Source: Escherichia phage HMD-P10. From it: a stretch of DNA of 64,000 bases. This document shows positions 34,761-41,099 of the stretch, one piece after another. The notes beneath the pieces were generated by a model, which worked only from the letters and a program-made list of their open reading frames with translations, had not been told where the DNA came from and ran no database searches. The DNA is taken from the sequence record PV469800.1; one strand, given 5' to 3'. Numbering within the stretch: the first letter of the stretch is position 1; every line of letters begins with the position of its first letter. Both the position numbers and the translations under genes were made by a program.

Positions 34761-34789
34761 TTGACTCTCTGACTATGGTTATTTAATAT
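34761..34789 (+). promoter_or_regulatory. sigma70-like promoter (TTGACT-17-TAATAT)
   Basis: heads the small-gene array. Confidence 0.45.
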
Positions 34790-34850
34790 TTGCATCAACA
34801 GGGGGGCGATGACCTCCCAACTAACTAACCTTAAACTAGGAGATTCAAAA

Positions 34851-35231
34851 ATGGCTTATCGTGCACCTAAATTCATCAACAAAGACAACTTTCGCAACGT
34901 ACTGGAGAAGGCACTTGATGAAAAATTTAACGGTAAATTGATTGTTGTTCACGCATTCAATTTCAAGTATGATATTAACGGGAATAAAATCAACCATTAC
35001 ACGGCAACCATGTTAGATGGTACACTATCAAGTGAAAAAGCCGTACTGAATGCACTTGCTGGACGTGGTAAAAACCTGATAAAATGCGATAAGAGACGTT
35101 ATCAGGGCGGCGCATATGGTTACGATGATGCTGTTTACCATCTTGAAAATATGGGATATTCAGTGGAAAAAGCTGGAGTGTCTCAAATAATCGGCAGTGA
35201 CGGCTATGTGACAATTTTCAAAATTAACTGA
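34851..35231 (+). CDS. hypothetical protein (array gene 1)
   Basis: ATG after conserved leader TAAACTAGGAGATTCAAAA; ORF-track upstream start lies inside the 5'UTR hairpin. Confidence 0.5.
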   Translation: MAYRAPKFINKDNFRNVLEKALDEKFNGKLIVVHAFNFKYDINGNKINHYTATMLDGTLSSEKAVLNALAGRGKNLIKCDKRRYQGGAYGYDDAVYHLENMGYSVEKAGVSQIIGSDGYVTIFKIN

Positions 35232-35239
35232 TAAAGTAC

Positions 35240-35319
35240 TTTACAAGGGGCTTATAGTTCGATAAAGTAAGCCCCAGATAAAGAGCTTTATCACTCAATC
35301 CTAAATTGGAGATTCTAAA
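35240..35319 (+). promoter_or_regulatory. type-B cassette: promoter TTTACA-17-TAAAGT with hairpin GGGGCTTA/TAAGCCCC and conserved RBS leader
   Basis: near-identical copy at 37475-37558; variants at 35615-35705, 36219-36305, 38270-38362. Confidence 0.45.
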
Positions 35320-35613
35320 ATGGCTATTATCAAAAACGTTGTAGTTCCTGCAAAAACTCGTGATGACGCTCGCATCATGGCGAAAAAGTTAGGTGGGAAA
35401 GTGATTGACAACGGAAAACAATCTGCTGTAAGATGGGGCGTGAAGACTGATAAACAGTTGAAGTTAAAAAATTCACCAATAAACCTTTTTACATGTGTAA
35501 ACACTATCGGGAAGACAAATGTATACACGAAAAAGGCATATATCAGACGCGTAGCCATGACATCACCTATTCGCACAATGAGAAGTCATGCAAAGCTGAA
35601 AATTAATCGTTAA
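35320..35613 (+). CDS. hypothetical basic protein (array gene 2)
   Basis: 97 aa; conserved leader. Confidence 0.45.
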   Translation: MAIIKNVVVPAKTRDDARIMAKKLGGKVIDNGKQSAVRWGVKTDKQLKLKNSPINLFTCVNTIGKTNVYTKKAYIRRVAMTSPIRTMRSHAKLKINR

Positions 35614-35705
35614 AGTACTTTACAAGGGGCTTAAAAGCTGATATCTTAAGCCCCAGATAAAGAGCTTTACCACTAAATCAAGTCCTTAAACTAGGAGATT
35701 CAAAA

Positions 35706-36218
35706 ATGAAAACTGTAGACGCTACCTTTGAAGTTGTAAAAGAAAAATTCACCATTGTTTACGAAGCTGTTAATTGCTACGAAGCAAGTCATAATCTTGA
35801 TAATTGGGAGTTTACAGATGACCATCAAGGCGGCGTGGCTATTAAAAATCCCAACTGTCAGCGTAATGGATTTAAATATGCAATCCCTTTACATTACAGC
35901 CTTAAACAGCTTTCAAGTGACTATGCAAAACAAGGCCGGGAAAATCCATCAAAAGAGGCTTACATCAGCTTACAGAAAGAACTAGAAAGAGATTTGGATG
36001 CTTCAGAGTATAACATTGCCGCTAAAGTTGTGGATGCCAACGGTAAAACGATTTTAGACAGTTTTTATATTGGTTATGCTTTCGATTGGTGCTACAGTGA
36101 CGGCGATGATTTAGATGACAGGCTAAAAGAGGAAGTGAACAACGCAGACGCAGAATCTGAAGTATTAGAACGCTTGGAAGCATTAAAAGATTCAGTGATG
36201 AATATCTTTAAGAACTAA
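35706..36218 (+). CDS. hypothetical acidic protein (array gene 3)
   Basis: 170 aa; conserved leader. Confidence 0.45.
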   Translation: MKTVDATFEVVKEKFTIVYEAVNCYEASHNLDNWEFTDDHQGGVAIKNPNCQRNGFKYAIPLHYSLKQLSSDYAKQGRENPSKEAYISLQKELERDLDASEYNIAAKVVDANGKTILDSFYIGYAFDWCYSDGDDLDDRLKEEVNNADAESEVLERLEALKDSVMNIFKN

Positions 36219-36305
36219 ATAGATTTCTTTACACGGGGTTATCAAGCTGATAAGATAGCCCCAGATAAAGAGATTTATCAACTGTCCTAAACTGGAGATT
36301 CAAAA

Positions 36306-36602
36306 ATGAAACTATCAAATAAAGTCCGTGAAAATCTAAGCAAGTTGCTTAATAAAATTGATTTCATTGAAACATCAAGGAATAGTCATGATGTTATGGA
36401 ATGGTTACACGGAAAAATCAAAGGCCGTCGTGTAGTGATTTGCTTATGGAATAGTTGCAGGGAATATAAAAAACCTGTATTACAAGTCAATATCTATGAT
36501 GATACTTTCAAAAGCCCTGTAAAGTCTAAAAGCGATTTATTAGAATCTTATGAGATAACTGTAAATGGCAAGGTATCACGTAAAGAGGAAGCACCATGTT
36601 AA
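36306..36602 (+). CDS. hypothetical protein (array gene 4)
   Basis: 98 aa; conserved leader. Confidence 0.45.
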   Translation: MKLSNKVRENLSKLLNKIDFIETSRNSHDVMEWLHGKIKGRRVVICLWNSCREYKKPVLQVNIYDDTFKSPVKSKSDLLESYEITVNGKVSRKEEAPC

Positions 36603-36928
36603 TGATGGGTATCACTGCAATCATTGCCATTATAGCACTTTACAAGGCTTATAGCGCATATAATTTGGCAAGTAAGGCAATCACGCAGCAGGTCAATAAT
36701 AACCTTGTAATGAGCTTTCTGGAGCGCTTAAGCGATGAACAAATAAAACGGTTAGAAATGAGCTTCAGATTTCAATCAAAAACTTATCAAATCAGCGACA
36801 TTTTCAAAGATGATTTTCAGCTTGTCGATGATTATAACTCTCTGATAAATGCTTTAAATATCAGTGATTTAAAAGATTATCATGCTGTAATAGTTCAAGA
36901 ATTGAGCAAACGAAAAAATTCCTCTTGA
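36596..36928 (+). CDS. small membrane protein (array gene 5)
   Basis: N-terminal TM helix MLMMGITAIIAIIALY; overlaps previous stop. Confidence 0.4.
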   Translation: MLMMGITAIIAIIALYKAYSAYNLASKAITQQVNNNLVMSFLERLSDEQIKRLEMSFRFQSKTYQISDIFKDDFQLVDDYNSLINALNISDLKDYHAVIVQELSKRKNSS

Positions 36929-37018
36929 TTTTGGTTTTTAAAACAAGTAAATTACTAATCAACGGGGAGGGAATGACCTTCCCCACTAAGTAAAATCCTT
37001 AAACTAGGAGATTCAAAA
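36925..37018 (+). promoter_or_regulatory. type-A cassette: promoter TTGATT-17-TAAATT, 5'UTR hairpin GGGGAGGG-AATGA-CCTTCCCC, conserved RBS leader
   Basis: copies at 37973-38066, 39765-39855, 40390-40452, 40717-40781; partial at 34790-34850 and 39238-39293. Confidence 0.45.
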
Positions 37019-39635: not shown

Positions 39636-39667
39636 TCAACAACTTACAAAAAACTTTTAAAAAAGTG

Positions 39668-39696
39668 TTGACAATGCCCCTTGACATTGGTAACTT
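39668..39696 (+). promoter_or_regulatory. sigma70-like promoter (TTGACA-17-TAACTT)
   Basis: tandem TTGACA boxes in intergenic gap. Confidence 0.35.
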
Positions 39697-39855
39697 TGTT
39701 CGAGGGGGTTTATCTAAAAGGGATTAACTTAAAAGATTCTTTATAGATAAACTTAAAAAATTGCTTGCAATCAGATATCAAAACAAGTAAATTACTAATC
39801 AACGGGAGGGATAACCTCCCCACTAAGTAAAGTCCTTAAACTAGGAGATTCAAAA

Positions 39856-40386
39856 ATGAACAAATTTCAAGCTATCAATTACATCCGCTCAAATAGTGTT
39901 ATGTCAAAGCCTGTTAAAGACACCTATGAATTTCGTTGCAATGGCGTACACTTTGCAACCATCACCAAATCAGAAAACGGGGCTTATTACGTTCATCGCC
40001 GTAATGTTGCAACCGTTGTAGTCTCTCACTTTATGCAAGCTGTCGCGGAACTTCTCCCGATGTTTTTAGGGCTTTACTTAGATGAGTGTAAGCACATTCA
40101 TAACCATGTTAAAAGCCTTTTAAACGGTTATAAAATGGCTTATGAGCGTTCTATCAAGTCCTTAAACAAGTTTTACAACGCACCTGAAAACACCGTATCA
40201 ATGGCATACGCTGTAAAGGGTGAGGCGGTGAGTCTCTTCGAAGTGGAAGAAATCGAGCTTTATGACCATCGCCCCAATGGTTACGCTAAAACTCTCGGTG
40301 AAGGTTTAACGTTTAACATCAAGAACTTAGAAAAAACTTTAAAAGATATTGAAAAAGATATTGACGAGACAATCAAAAATCTGTAA
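39856..40386 (+). CDS. hypothetical protein (array gene 13)
   Basis: 176 aa; type-A cassette upstream. Confidence 0.45.
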   Translation: MNKFQAINYIRSNSVMSKPVKDTYEFRCNGVHFATITKSENGAYYVHRRNVATVVVSHFMQAVAELLPMFLGLYLDECKHIHNHVKSLLNGYKMAYERSIKSLNKFYNAPENTVSMAYAVKGEAVSLFEVEEIELYDHRPNGYAKTLGEGLTFNIKNLEKTLKDIEKDIDETIKNL

Positions 40387-40452
40387 ATTGTCAATCAACG
40401 GGGAGGGAATGACCTTCCCCACTAAGTAAAGTCCTAAACTGGAGTTATCAAG

Positions 40453-40716
40453 ATGGAAAACGTCGAACTGACCACACTTTTACAAATTGCAACCGACAAA
40501 GAGGATGTAGCATTATTCCACCGTATCGAAAGTGATTTGTTCAATGGTGAAATCATTAAAGAATCTTACGAAGTGGTCGGATTCAAAGATGGTAAATCAT
40601 TTGGATTCTTTGACCTCGACAAAGGCAACGCTATTACAAAGTATGATGTTTTATCTTGTGAGATTCTGACAAAATACAACGAAAAAAGACTTGCAACATA
40701 CGCCAACATGCAGTAA
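40453..40716 (+). CDS. hypothetical protein (array gene 14)
   Basis: 87 aa; type-A hairpin upstream, divergent RBS. Confidence 0.4.
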   Translation: MENVELTTLLQIATDKEDVALFHRIESDLFNGEIIKESYEVVGFKDGKSFGFFDLDKGNAITKYDVLSCEILTKYNEKRLATYANMQ

Positions 40717-40781
40717 ATTACTAATCAACGGGAGGGATAACCTCCCCACTAAGTAAAGTCCTTAAACTAGGAGATTCTAAA

Positions 40782-41030
40782 ATGGCAACTATCCGCGCAA
40801 TTGTAAATTCTTATGGCTGCTACACTCTGGACGTTAAATTTGATATAGGTGGGACCGATGAGTGTTTCGAACTGGTGAAAACAGTCATTAAACAAGTTAT
40901 CCCAGACTATAACCCTACTGATGACTTCTGGAAAGATGCAGTAAAAGAGGCGTTGAACGATGAATATCATTACCATTATTGGGGTGATTTGATTGTCTCC
41001 CTGTACTACAATAAACAAGGTTGCAACTAA
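40782..41030 (+). CDS. hypothetical protein (array gene 15)
   Basis: 82 aa; type-A cassette upstream. Confidence 0.45.
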   Translation: MATIRAIVNSYGCYTLDVKFDIGGTDECFELVKTVIKQVIPDYNPTDDFWKDAVKEALNDEYHYHYWGDLIVSLYYNKQGCN

Positions 41031-41068
41031 TCGGCGCAACGGGGCTAAATAGCCCCAGATACCTTTAT

Positions 41069-41092
41069 AGCCCCTTAAATGGGGCTTTTTTA
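41069..41092 (+). terminator. rho-independent terminator ending the plus-strand array
   Basis: AGCCCC-TTAAAT-GGGGCT + TTTTTT. Confidence 0.6.
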
Positions 41093-41099
41093 CGTCTTA

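Follow-up and report, generated by a model that had tools for sequence, protein, structure and literature searches.

The locus considered here raises the question of why a series of small genes without recognisable products should stand, one after another, behind intergenic sequences that are almost the same. It lies in Escherichia phage HMD-P10 (sequence record PV469800.1), from which a stretch of 64,000 nucleotides (hereafter, the window) was analysed. Between two intrinsic terminators, the window contains an array of 15 open reading frames (ORFs) of 52-180 aa, all on the + strand, which run from 34851 to 41030 and are termed g1 to g15; 12 of these are preceded by one of two types of repeated cassette, A and B, in which a promoter, a hairpin, and a translation leader follow or enclose one another. 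The likely answer is that the region is a hyperplastic accessory-gene array of a Felix O1-like phage, made of self-contained expression modules of the kind called promoter-early stem-loops (PeSLs), which Arbiol et al. (2010, PMC2839356) described in the T4-type phages RB49 and phi1. This answer is based on the anatomy of the cassettes, on covariation in their hairpins, on gene gain and loss bounded by cassettes, on the exchange of cassettes between slots, and on sequence held in common with the PeSLs of RB49.

Two types of cassette and a common leader

For comparison, 11 annotated genomes and 28 IMG/VR loci were fetched, and the 32 related ones with enough downstream DNA are the genomes referred to below; two distant Macro-domain loci (L038 and L039), which belong to unrelated phages and have no cassettes, served as a negative control. 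The features of the array and its boundaries are as follows (the number between two promoter hexamers is their spacing in nt).

34361..34402, + strand: intrinsic terminator (terminator scan) after the Macro-domain gene, left boundary of the array transcription unit
34761..34853, + strand: first cassette, a type-A variant, with TTGACT-17-TAATAT after an AT-rich tract, hairpin GGGGGGCGATGACCTCCC, leader, and the ATG of g1
34851..35231, + strand: g1, 126 aa, PHROG 4495
35229..35322, + strand: type-B cassette before g2, with TTTACA-17-TAAAGT at 35240-35268 inside a two-part hairpin (outer helix 35229-35293, inner helix 35247-35275; dG -30 kcal/mol, z -3.9)
35320..35613, + strand: g2, 97 aa, basic (pI 11.2); in relatives 96-97, 85, or 77 aa long, depending on the allele
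35614..35708, + strand: type-B cassette of g3 (TTTACA-17-TATCTT), sharing 85 nt at 100% identity with that of g10
35706..36218, + strand: g3, 170 aa, acidic, PHROG 4190
36219..36308, + strand: type-B cassette (TTTACA-17-TAAGAT; GGGGTTAT/ATAGCCCC) before g4, its outer helix with a compensatory U-A pair (dG -29 kcal/mol, z -4.6)
36306..36928, + strand: g4 (98 aa) and g5 (110 aa), overlapping by 7 nt, with no cassette between them
36925..37021, + strand: type-A cassette before g6, with TTGATT-17-TAAATT, hairpin GGGGAGGGAATGACCTTCCCC at 36964-36984, leader, and ATG
37019..37177, + strand: g6, 52 aa
37178..37473, + strand: 23-nt leader-only spacer, then g7 (90 aa)
37474..37963, + strand: type-B cassette identical to that of g2, then g8 (134 aa, core gene)
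37964..38267, + strand: type-A cassette identical over 62 nt to that of g6, then g9 (66 aa)
38268..38905, + strand: type-B cassette, then g10 (180 aa, acidic)
38906..39205, + strand: 66-nt spacer with hairpin AGCCCCTCACAGGGGCT and AGGAGG but no cassette, then g11 (77 aa)
39203..39635, + strand: type-A cassette (TAGACA-17-TAAATT), its -35 overlapping the end of g11, then g12 (113 aa, core gene)
39636..39764, + strand: conserved non-coding spacer between g12 and g13, with an extra promoter-like site, AAAAAAGTGTTGACA-17-TAACTT, at 39668-39696
39765..40386, + strand: type-A cassette (TTGCAA-17-TAAATT, hairpin 39804-39821), then g13 (176 aa)
40361..40716, + strand: type-A cassette with the promoter TTGACG-17-TAAATT in the 3' end of g13, then g14 (87 aa)
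40691..41030, + strand: type-A cassette with TTGCAA-17-TAAATT in the 3' end of g14, followed by g15 (82 aa)
within 41040..41092, + strand: degenerate cassette remnant CAACGGGGCTAAATAGCCCCAGATA, recognised in the sequence 5' of the right-hand terminator
41069-41086 plus T run, + strand: intrinsic terminator (terminator scan), right boundary of the array

Seven cassettes are of type A (before g1, as a variant, and before g6, g9, g12, g13, g14, and g15) and five of type B (before g2, g3, g4, g8, and g10). A sequence-only reading of this DNA had placed every gene behind a cassette, which holds for these 12 and fails for g5, which overlaps g4, for g7, which has the leader alone, and for g11, which has a hairpin and AGGAGG of its own. 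The same reading gave the gene sizes as 49-180 aa, and the lower figure is wrong (the true starts of g1 and g12 are at 34851 and 39294). Overall, the repeats and motifs that it reported are real, but their extent was overstated.

Its description of the cassettes as repeated almost verbatim was borne out: pairs of cassettes are 96% identical over 113 nt or 98% identical over 108 nt, those of g2/g8, g3/g10, and g6/g9 are 100% identical over 62-85 nt, and a 31-nt type-A core occurs in three exact copies (none expected). Both types share a translation leader of about 25 nt, CCTTAAACTAGGAGATTCAAAAATG, and the form (C)CTTAAACTAGGAGATTCAAAAATG or a near variant stands at 13 of the 15 gene starts (the 12 cassettes and the leader-only g7), as had been proposed when both types were said to end in the same ribosome-binding leader. 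This leader always contains GGAG. In the window, the pattern TAAAYTRGAGATTCWAAAATG has 11 matches, all within the array, against 0.05 expected, and the leader precedes none of the approximately 148 other ORFs, none of which reaches 13 of its 16 positions. The -35 and -10 hexamers are separated by 17 nt in all 12 cassettes, and AT-rich tracts lie 5' of the first promoter and of the type-A -35. A MotA-box reading of the TGCTTGCAA -35 region was rejected by eye, the spacing to the -10 being too long, and an Rfam scan of 34-43 kb found no family at E <= 1.

In type A, the -35 is followed after 17 nt by TAAATT (in the first cassette, TAATAT), then by ACTAATCAAC and a G/C hairpin, with the leader last. 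The promoter TTGATT-17-TAAATT and the hairpin GGGGAGGG-AATGA-CCTTCCCC of the earlier description are present, but the -35 is not uniform (TTGATT, TAGACA, TTGCAA, TTGACG, and TTGACT), and two of the promoters are within the 3' end of the preceding gene (g13 for g14; g14 for g15). At sigma-70 promoters, transcription begins 6-8 nt after the -10, and the type-A hairpin lies 2-4 nt downstream of the start predicted in this way. Among 177 hairpins from the 32 genomes, there are 74 distinct versions, all but one of which fold into a hairpin, and the stems differ while the structure is kept (GGGGAGGG/CCTTCCCC, GGGAGG/CCTCCC, GGGGC/GCCCC, GGGC/GCCC, and GGGA/TCCC). More versions are stabler on the sense strand than on the other (51 vs 20, p = 7e-7), which fits a role at the RNA level. 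A hairpin near the 5' end of an mRNA is a classic protection from 5'-end-dependent decay, as known from work on ompA, and, by analogy, the type-A hairpin is most plausibly a 5'-terminal RNA stabiliser or an attenuator.

The type-B promoter, TTTACA and a TAnnnT hexamer separated by 17 nt, is contained in a hairpin, GGGGCTTA...TAAGCCCC. The previously described form with TAAAGT exists, but it is one of three -10/loop variants in the window (TAAAGT, TATCTT, and TAAGAT), and an outer helix had been overlooked. In this second helix, ATAAAGTACTTTA, which includes the -35, pairs with a downstream TAAAGAGCTTTAT; the strong conservation of CCCCAGATAAAGAGCTTTA is thus due to its being part of the outer helix. 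The whole promoter is thereby enclosed in a two-part hairpin of about 60 nt, with a dG of about -27 to -30 kcal/mol and a z of -2.6 to -4.6. The 165 type-B cassettes of the 32 genomes comprise 62 distinct versions, all of which fold into the hairpin, and TAnnnT is kept 16-18 nt after TTTACA in 61 of the 62 despite the use of 13 different hexamers, which is good comparative evidence for a real promoter. When 64 distinct cassettes were aligned, 87.9% of the cells paired, compared with at most 53% when the partners were slid, and the covariation score was above that of all 500 shuffles. For example, pair 9-59 is G-C in 45 sequences and U-A in 11, pair 24-44 is C-G in 35 and U-G in 28 of the 64, and pair 10-58 is U-G in 58 of the 64.

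A transcript from the type-B promoter would contain the 3' arm only, so the full hairpin would form only in RNA that reads through from upstream. The type-B hairpin would then, most plausibly and again by analogy, insulate or process the read-through RNA, either by attenuation or by an RNase III-like cleavage that leaves a protective 3' hairpin, while transcripts starting at the type-B promoter itself would carry an open leader.

Gene gain and loss among relatives

The window is that of a Felixounavirus, and the array region matches 256 phage records, nearly all of them Felixounavirus, with a best identity of about 89%. This genus comprises Felix O1-like myoviruses of Escherichia, Salmonella, Shigella, and Citrobacter. 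At least 80% of the array is covered in only 11 of the 256 matching records, compared with 212 of 275 and 178 of 252 for flanks of equal size. Alignment to relatives had been set as the test that could refute the idea of cassette-bounded replacement, and it revealed no fixed gene content in the 32 genomes and junctions that fall inside cassettes. Only g5, g7, g8, and g12 are present in all 32; g10 and g11, which always co-occur, are in 31, g1 and g4 in 30, g2 in 27, g3 in 25, g9 in 23, and g6, the most sporadic, in seven. The corresponding numbers for g13, g15, and g14 (28, 27, and 17) are lowered by some contigs ending early. An extra gene absent from the window, x14, is found in 18 genomes, and seven further families occupy fixed slots in a few genomes each.

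How the units come and go can be seen at the junctions. In ten of the eleven deletion-type adjacency classes, exactly one cassette-length spacer is kept. The cassettes at the junctions are hybrids, their promoter and hairpin being those of the upstream unit and their leader that of the downstream one. Genomes without g9, for example, have a complete type-A cassette before g10, which indicates a crossover in the leader, the sole segment common to A and B. In the window, g6 has a copy of the leader on either side, the two being direct repeats whose starts are 182 nt apart, and in genomes lacking g6, it is g7 that stands behind a complete type-A cassette. Where g14 is absent, the tail of g13 is followed by one cassette and then g15, and where x14 is present, the promoter of the first cassette precedes x14 and g1 stands behind a type-B cassette. 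Cassettes are also exchanged between slots: 115 of 342 are closest to the cassette of another slot, 38 of these within the same genome. Several metagenomic contigs stop inside cassettes, as expected of repeats that break assemblies.

These observations suggest a mechanism. Each module consists of a small gene or gene pair behind a predicted host sigma-70-type promoter, a G/C-clamped stem-loop, and the leader of about 25 nt. Since the same 25-110 nt are repeated about 12 times in direct orientation, they provide portable homology, and ordinary phage recombination between cassettes could delete, insert, duplicate, or convert units of gene plus cassette; over longer times, it could reorder them, the expression of the neighbours remaining unbroken.

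The cassettes are widespread, with type B in 285 phage records (1874 places) and type A in 246 (1392 places). The cassettes recur in Mooglevirus (phages of Citrobacter), where the leader is a version particular to that genus, AACAATCCTAAACTGGAGAATC. In Erwinia phage Panisse, a Kolesnikvirus, the same architecture follows the gene at the Macro position, with the leader AACAACCCTTATAAAGGAATC and with type-B hairpins that contain compensatory GGTG/CACC changes. Here, the homologues come in a different order (g1, g3, g7, g2 (weak), g10, g4, g11, g13, n5), so reordering of the array does occur at the distance of Kolesnikvirus, and it was seen only there. The sequence-only reading had spoken of mobile cassettes that shuffle genes; this is right for the gain and loss of gene plus cassette and for the order relative to Kolesnikvirus, but not within the other two genera.

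Gene products, expression, and surroundings

None of the 15 proteins matches Pfam at E <= 0.01, and 14 belong to PHROG families of unknown function, in agreement with the earlier statement that no gene was recognisable. The g10 model (pLDDT 77) has ADP-ribosyltransferase (ART) toxins as its top Foldseek matches, which are weak (E >= 0.028, TM about 0.33), and its residues H5, Y36/Y38, and E80 are conserved (the catalytic sets of ARTs being H-Y-E or R-S-E). Profile searches of g10 against Pfam and PDB sequences gave no match to an ART family. On the basis of the model, g10 is a possible ADP-ribosyltransferase, a lead that is of interest because a Macro-domain gene lies just upstream of the array. 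This weak likeness is also the single functional hint in favour of the anti-defence or host-takeover genes which, according to the sequence-only reading, usually reside in such regions. For g13 (39856-40386), a confident structure model gave no informative structural match; its database homologues are labelled PF26821.1, and the local Pfam scan of g13 itself was without a match. The N-terminus of g5 (36596-36928) has a hydrophobic stretch, MLMMGITAIIAIIALYKAY, so that g5 is probably membrane-anchored.

An early role for these proteins, and activity of the promoters predicted from sequence, are suggested by reverse transcription-PCR on Felix O1, where the homologues of g3, g8, g12, and g13, and that of the Macro gene, were maximal at 5 min after infection; four of the seven array homologues listed peak at this time (ORF16, 20, 21, and 22, ORF16 being the homologue of g3).

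The window has 26 tRNA genes, as in Felix O1-like phages. On the 5' side of the array are rIIA/rIIB, a polynucleotide kinase, spanins, and a protein of 261 aa with a Macro domain (Pfam E = 7.5e-7), which is annotated as a phosphatase in relatives. The terminator at 34361..34402 is identical in sequence to the Felix O1 terminator t13, and the right-hand terminator matches t23 by position, the sequences being similar but not identical. Between t13 and the first promoter, a repeat of about 39 nt (TCATTTTCAAAACGTGCAGA...) occurs in three to four copies at 34405-34600, and in Mooglevirus, an additional ORF begins at the last copy. Two IMG/VR contigs of relatives (L042 and L043) stop at the identical base about 300 bp past the Macro gene (...CCCCTCTTACTCC), and in one of them the next bases are Nextera adapter, an indication that the DNA physically ends just 5' of the first promoter of the array. 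A second copy of CCCCTCTTACTCC was looked for and not found, and a search for a direct terminal repeat at this possible genome end gave single copies only; the equivalent segment of the window (about 34580-34750) is divergent.

The 130-nt spacer between g12 and g13 is kept in both Felixounavirus and Mooglevirus and appears better conserved than the neighbouring genes; the spacer and -10 of its extra promoter-like site lie within CCCCT...AGGGG. Some Mooglevirus genomes have an additional gene after the equivalent of this spacer. Outside the array, at 29014-29043 and directly 3' of a stop codon, is a PeSL-like promoter, TTGACA-18-TAGAAT, with GGGGCTTCAAAGCCCC between its boxes and without the array leader.

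On the 3' side, a half-cassette at 41040-41062, after g15, has a type-A-like start (CAACGGGG) and a type-B-like end (GCCCCAGATA) without promoter or leader, and thus resembles the "half PeSLs" reported for T4-type phages. Beyond it is a 1.6-kb stretch without ORFs and then genes on the opposite strand. The ORF-free stretch (41100-42690) contains dense short repeats with a period of 10-12 bp; YTGTTAAG has 27 sites in the window (8.8 expected), 13 of them at 41.5-42.6 kb. From its sequence, the stretch looks like phased protein-binding iterons and is possibly an origin or packaging region. The GenBank records of several relatives begin or stop within its equivalent.

Competing explanations and known systems

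Several observations weigh against an array of recombining PeSL-type modules. The eleventh adjacency class is not cassette-bounded, since g4 has been lost and g3 and g5 are joined with a 16-nt gap. The Citrobacter-phage contig L031 (90,000 bp) carries g2 and its cassette as a perfect tandem duplication (7000-7870, 430-bp unit); at its junction, ...CTAAAATG is joined to CTTTACATGGGG (ATG to CTTTACA), so that a complete cassette including the ATG abuts the next at its -35. Such a junction is not from a simple homologous crossover, and the duplication could be due to a template switch or an assembly artefact. It is at the same time the one indirect hint that neighbouring cassettes may form minicircles by recombination. 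In Felixounavirus and Mooglevirus, units are gained, lost, and converted but not shuffled, their order being strictly collinear. Concerted evolution was tested by mean identity: orthologous cassettes are more alike (0.91/0.90) than paralogues in the same genome (0.87/0.855), and these barely exceed paralogues in other genomes (0.866/0.846; B, p = 0.22; A, p = 0.008), a weak excess, so much of the similarity may come from selection on function and not from ongoing homogenisation. No U run follows either hairpin, which makes classical intrinsic termination unlikely, and this candidate role was rejected. The type-B hairpin has no strand asymmetry (-22.7 vs -22.2 kcal/mol), so stability does not separate a role in RNA from one in DNA. 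Not all the array is early in Felix O1: three homologues (ORF17, 19, and 23) peak at 25 min, the window genes concerned being g4, g7, and g15. Data on the transcriptome, transcription starts, terminators, or RNA processing of Felix O1-like phages were absent from the literature searched. Finally, the likeness to RB49 described below could be in part a convergence on optimal E. coli expression signals.

One explanation that draws on these points is that the repeats are purely regulatory and alike by selection, gene gain and loss being the work of generic recombination in which the cassettes have no special role. The ranking of orthologues over both kinds of paralogue, the collinear order in the 32 genomes, and the deletion class and duplication whose junctions lie outside homologous cassette segments all favour it, and an architecture conserved across three genera argues for function. 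We nevertheless consider it quite unlikely, given that the other ten deletion-type classes leave one intact cassette, that hybrid cassettes combine the 5' part of the upstream unit with the leader of the downstream one, that a third of the cassettes are closest to a paralogue (with three pairs in the window 100% identical), and that the array is far more plastic than its flanks. Somewhat more credible, though still improbable, is that the leader, possibly with the hairpins, is chiefly the site at which a trans-acting RNA-binding protein or nuclease, encoded by phage or host, switches the gene set jointly. Such a site would resemble those on the early mRNAs of T4 at which RegA/RegB act, or the start-associated sequences discussed below. 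The restriction of the leader to the array, the GGAG in every copy, the comparison with start-associated sequences made by the authors of the phage Mordin paper (PMC4611695), and the genus-specific versions of the leader, as expected of co-evolution with a factor, would be in keeping with this. But no candidate regulator was identified in this analysis, the leader also occurs in the PeSLs of RB49, a member of an unrelated phage family, and to explain much of the conservation needs no more than a strong Shine-Dalgarno (SD) sequence and an A-rich spacer of 8 nt; a site for a trans-acting factor would, moreover, be compatible with a role in recombination.

A role of the type-B inverted repeat as DNA seems very improbable. 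In this case, it would be the operator of a dimeric repressor, or a supercoil-dependent cruciform over the -35 and -10, serving late shut-off; the promoter does lie entirely inside a near-perfect inverted repeat, the arms are highly conserved in sequence, and the predicted stability is the same on both strands. However, the frequent G-U (T-G) pairs would be mismatches in a cruciform and would give a dimer asymmetric half-sites, the compensatory changes (GC to UA, and GGTG/CACC) keep the pairing rather than a fixed sequence, and the predicted folding energy of the DNA is about half that of the RNA. It is scarcely probable, too, that the cassettes are actively mobile, a dedicated structure-specific nuclease or recombinase moving them as minicircles in an integron-like manner. 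Minicircles of PeSLs were detected in RB49/phi1, and the authors left open whether a dedicated enzyme is needed (PMC2839356). The hairpins are conserved across genera, the L031 junction falls exactly at a cassette boundary without homology, and g9 is common to unrelated phages and lies amid similar cassettes in RB16. On the other hand, Pfam and PHROG scans found no recombinase in or beside the array, the gene slots are fixed within two genera, and the junctions are in homologous segments, as expected of general recombination.

The preferred explanation, modules of the PeSL type recombined by ordinary means, would account for variation of the region in steps of whole genes and for the assembly breaks there, and it gives the genome's most variable part a dozen candidate early promoters and two conserved RNA structures. 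Felix O1-like phages are widely used in Salmonella and E. coli typing, biocontrol, and therapy. The cassettes mark dispensable accessory genes, which are therefore candidates for screens for host-takeover or anti-defence functions, and they offer natural insertion sites with ready-made expression signals for phage engineering.

Parts of the cassettes have been noticed before. The Felix O1 genome paper (Whichard et al. 2010, PMC3185647) lists direct repeats of 57 bp (CTTTACATGGGGCTTAAAAGTCTGTAAAGTAAGCCCCAGATAAAGAGCTTTACCACT), which corresponds to type B, and 39 bp (TTGACACTGGTTTTTAGATAGATTAAATTACACATCAAC), which corresponds to the type-A promoter; these repeats are outside its list of predicted promoters, no hairpin, leader, or link to gene content is described, and the temporal control of transcription is stated to be unknown. 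In Citrobacter phage Mordin (2015), a 26-bp repeat was found "reminiscent of start-associated sequences" (PMC4611695). The latter (SAS/ESAS), whose own role is unknown, are in cluster K mycobacteriophages and, like the array leader, are a conserved SD-containing motif just 5' of the start codons of a subset of genes in one genome arm (PMC4611695). The sequences appear unrelated, however, and the hosts and phages are others; the likeness is treated as one of analogy and not of membership. Unlike SAS, the array motif forms only the 3' third of a longer element with promoter and hairpin, and it marks the junctions of recombination. Upstream of some SAS there is also an inverted repeat.

Other likenesses are of structure. 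In phage T7, RNase III processing hairpins lie between early genes, and the 5' untranslated region (UTR) of ompA has a 5'-terminal stabilising hairpin. The type-B hairpin may be likened to the T7 sites, which also have two-part stems of about 20 bp with an internal loop between early cistrons, and the type-A hairpin to those of the ompA kind, given its position within 2-4 nt of the predicted mRNA 5' end. There is no sequence similarity in either case, and the type-B hairpin holds a promoter whereas the T7 sites hold none. In halovirus HF2, promoter-carrying repeats are spread between genes, but this is an archaeal virus with archaeal promoters, and the abstract mentions neither hairpin and leader modules nor a link to gene gain and loss (PMC8707807).

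The closest known counterparts of the cassettes are the PeSLs. These were defined in RB49/phi1 by an AT-rich tract and a sigma-70 promoter, by an SD and an ATG that follow, and by a polyG/polyC stem-loop, G-T pairs included, which may lie between or over the promoter boxes, upstream of them, or just downstream (PMC2839356). Comeau et al. (2014, PMC4122927) then found them in PST/T4 and nt-1/KVP40, with the consensus TTTACW-N17-TAYWAT in PST/T4. They occur between a stop and a start codon and cluster in hyperplastic regions, beside indels of close relatives (PMC2839356, PMC4122927). In RB49/phi1, promoter and terminator activity was shown with lacZ fusions, and the minicircles, also found experimentally, had their crossovers between the -10 and the ATG (PMC2839356). 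In our literature searches, PeSLs were described in T4-likes only. The resemblance to PeSLs proposed by the sequence-only reading is supported, at the level of sequence, by the array, in which an intergenic hyperplastic position, a promoter, a stem-loop, an SD with ATG, and cassette-bounded indels are all found. The stem lies over the spacer and -10 in type B and downstream of the -10 in type A, positions both known among PeSLs, and the type-B -35, TTTACA, fits the PST/T4 consensus.

The resemblance extends to the sequence itself. RB49 PeSLs (e.g., AAAAAGTGTTGACAGGGGAGGATAACTCCCCTACAATACAACCATCAAGACG...CTTAGGAGAATCAAACAATG and ...ACTGGAGAATCAAAAATG) have in common with the array the leader GGAGAATCAAAAATG, the hairpin GGGGAGGATAACTCCCC, the motif ACACATCAA after the -10, and the UP/-35 sequence AAAAAGTGTTGACA, the last of which is also contained, in identical form, in the promoter of the g12-g13 spacer. 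A leader pattern derived from the Felix phages, GGAGAWTCWAAAATG, has four matches in RB49, all at PeSL-linked starts, compared with 0.06 expected, and RB49 genes that follow a promoter and G/C hairpin agree with the Felix leader in 10.5 of its 16 positions, other ORFs in 6.8. Homologues of g9 (39-53% identity) exist in T4-like phages, siphoviruses, and a Ruegeria phage, and that of RB16 sits among similar cassettes; a search for the other array genes in RB49 (100-149 kb) and RB16 (1-50 kb) yielded g9 only. The distribution of g9 supports the idea, which is for now improbable, that PeSL-type cassettes are an "expression and recombination linker" common to unrelated coliphage lineages, including RB49 and RB16 of the Straboviridae and all the Ounavirinae. 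Were this true, co-infecting phages of different families could swap ready-to-express genes via 15-100 nt of common cassette sequence, in an integron-like economy of gene cassettes without an integrase.

There are also differences from the PeSLs described so far. The phages with the array are Ounavirinae (Felixounavirus, Mooglevirus, and Kolesnikvirus), whereas PeSLs were described from Straboviridae. Promoter, terminator, and minicircle activities were demonstrated in RB49/phi1, whereas the promoters and stem-loops of the array are predicted from sequence, and within a genus, the array shows gain, loss, and conversion but no reordering. Its cassettes fall into two sharply defined classes joined by one uniform 25-nt leader, the outer helix of type B encloses the entire promoter in a hairpin of about 60 nt, and the type-A hairpin comes after the predicted start, in the 5' UTR. 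The region is thus a PeSL-type cassette array in a lineage where such elements were unrecognised, with some features of its own, and it extends the PeSL concept, with links at the level of sequence, from the T4-likes to a second, unrelated subfamily of myoviruses.

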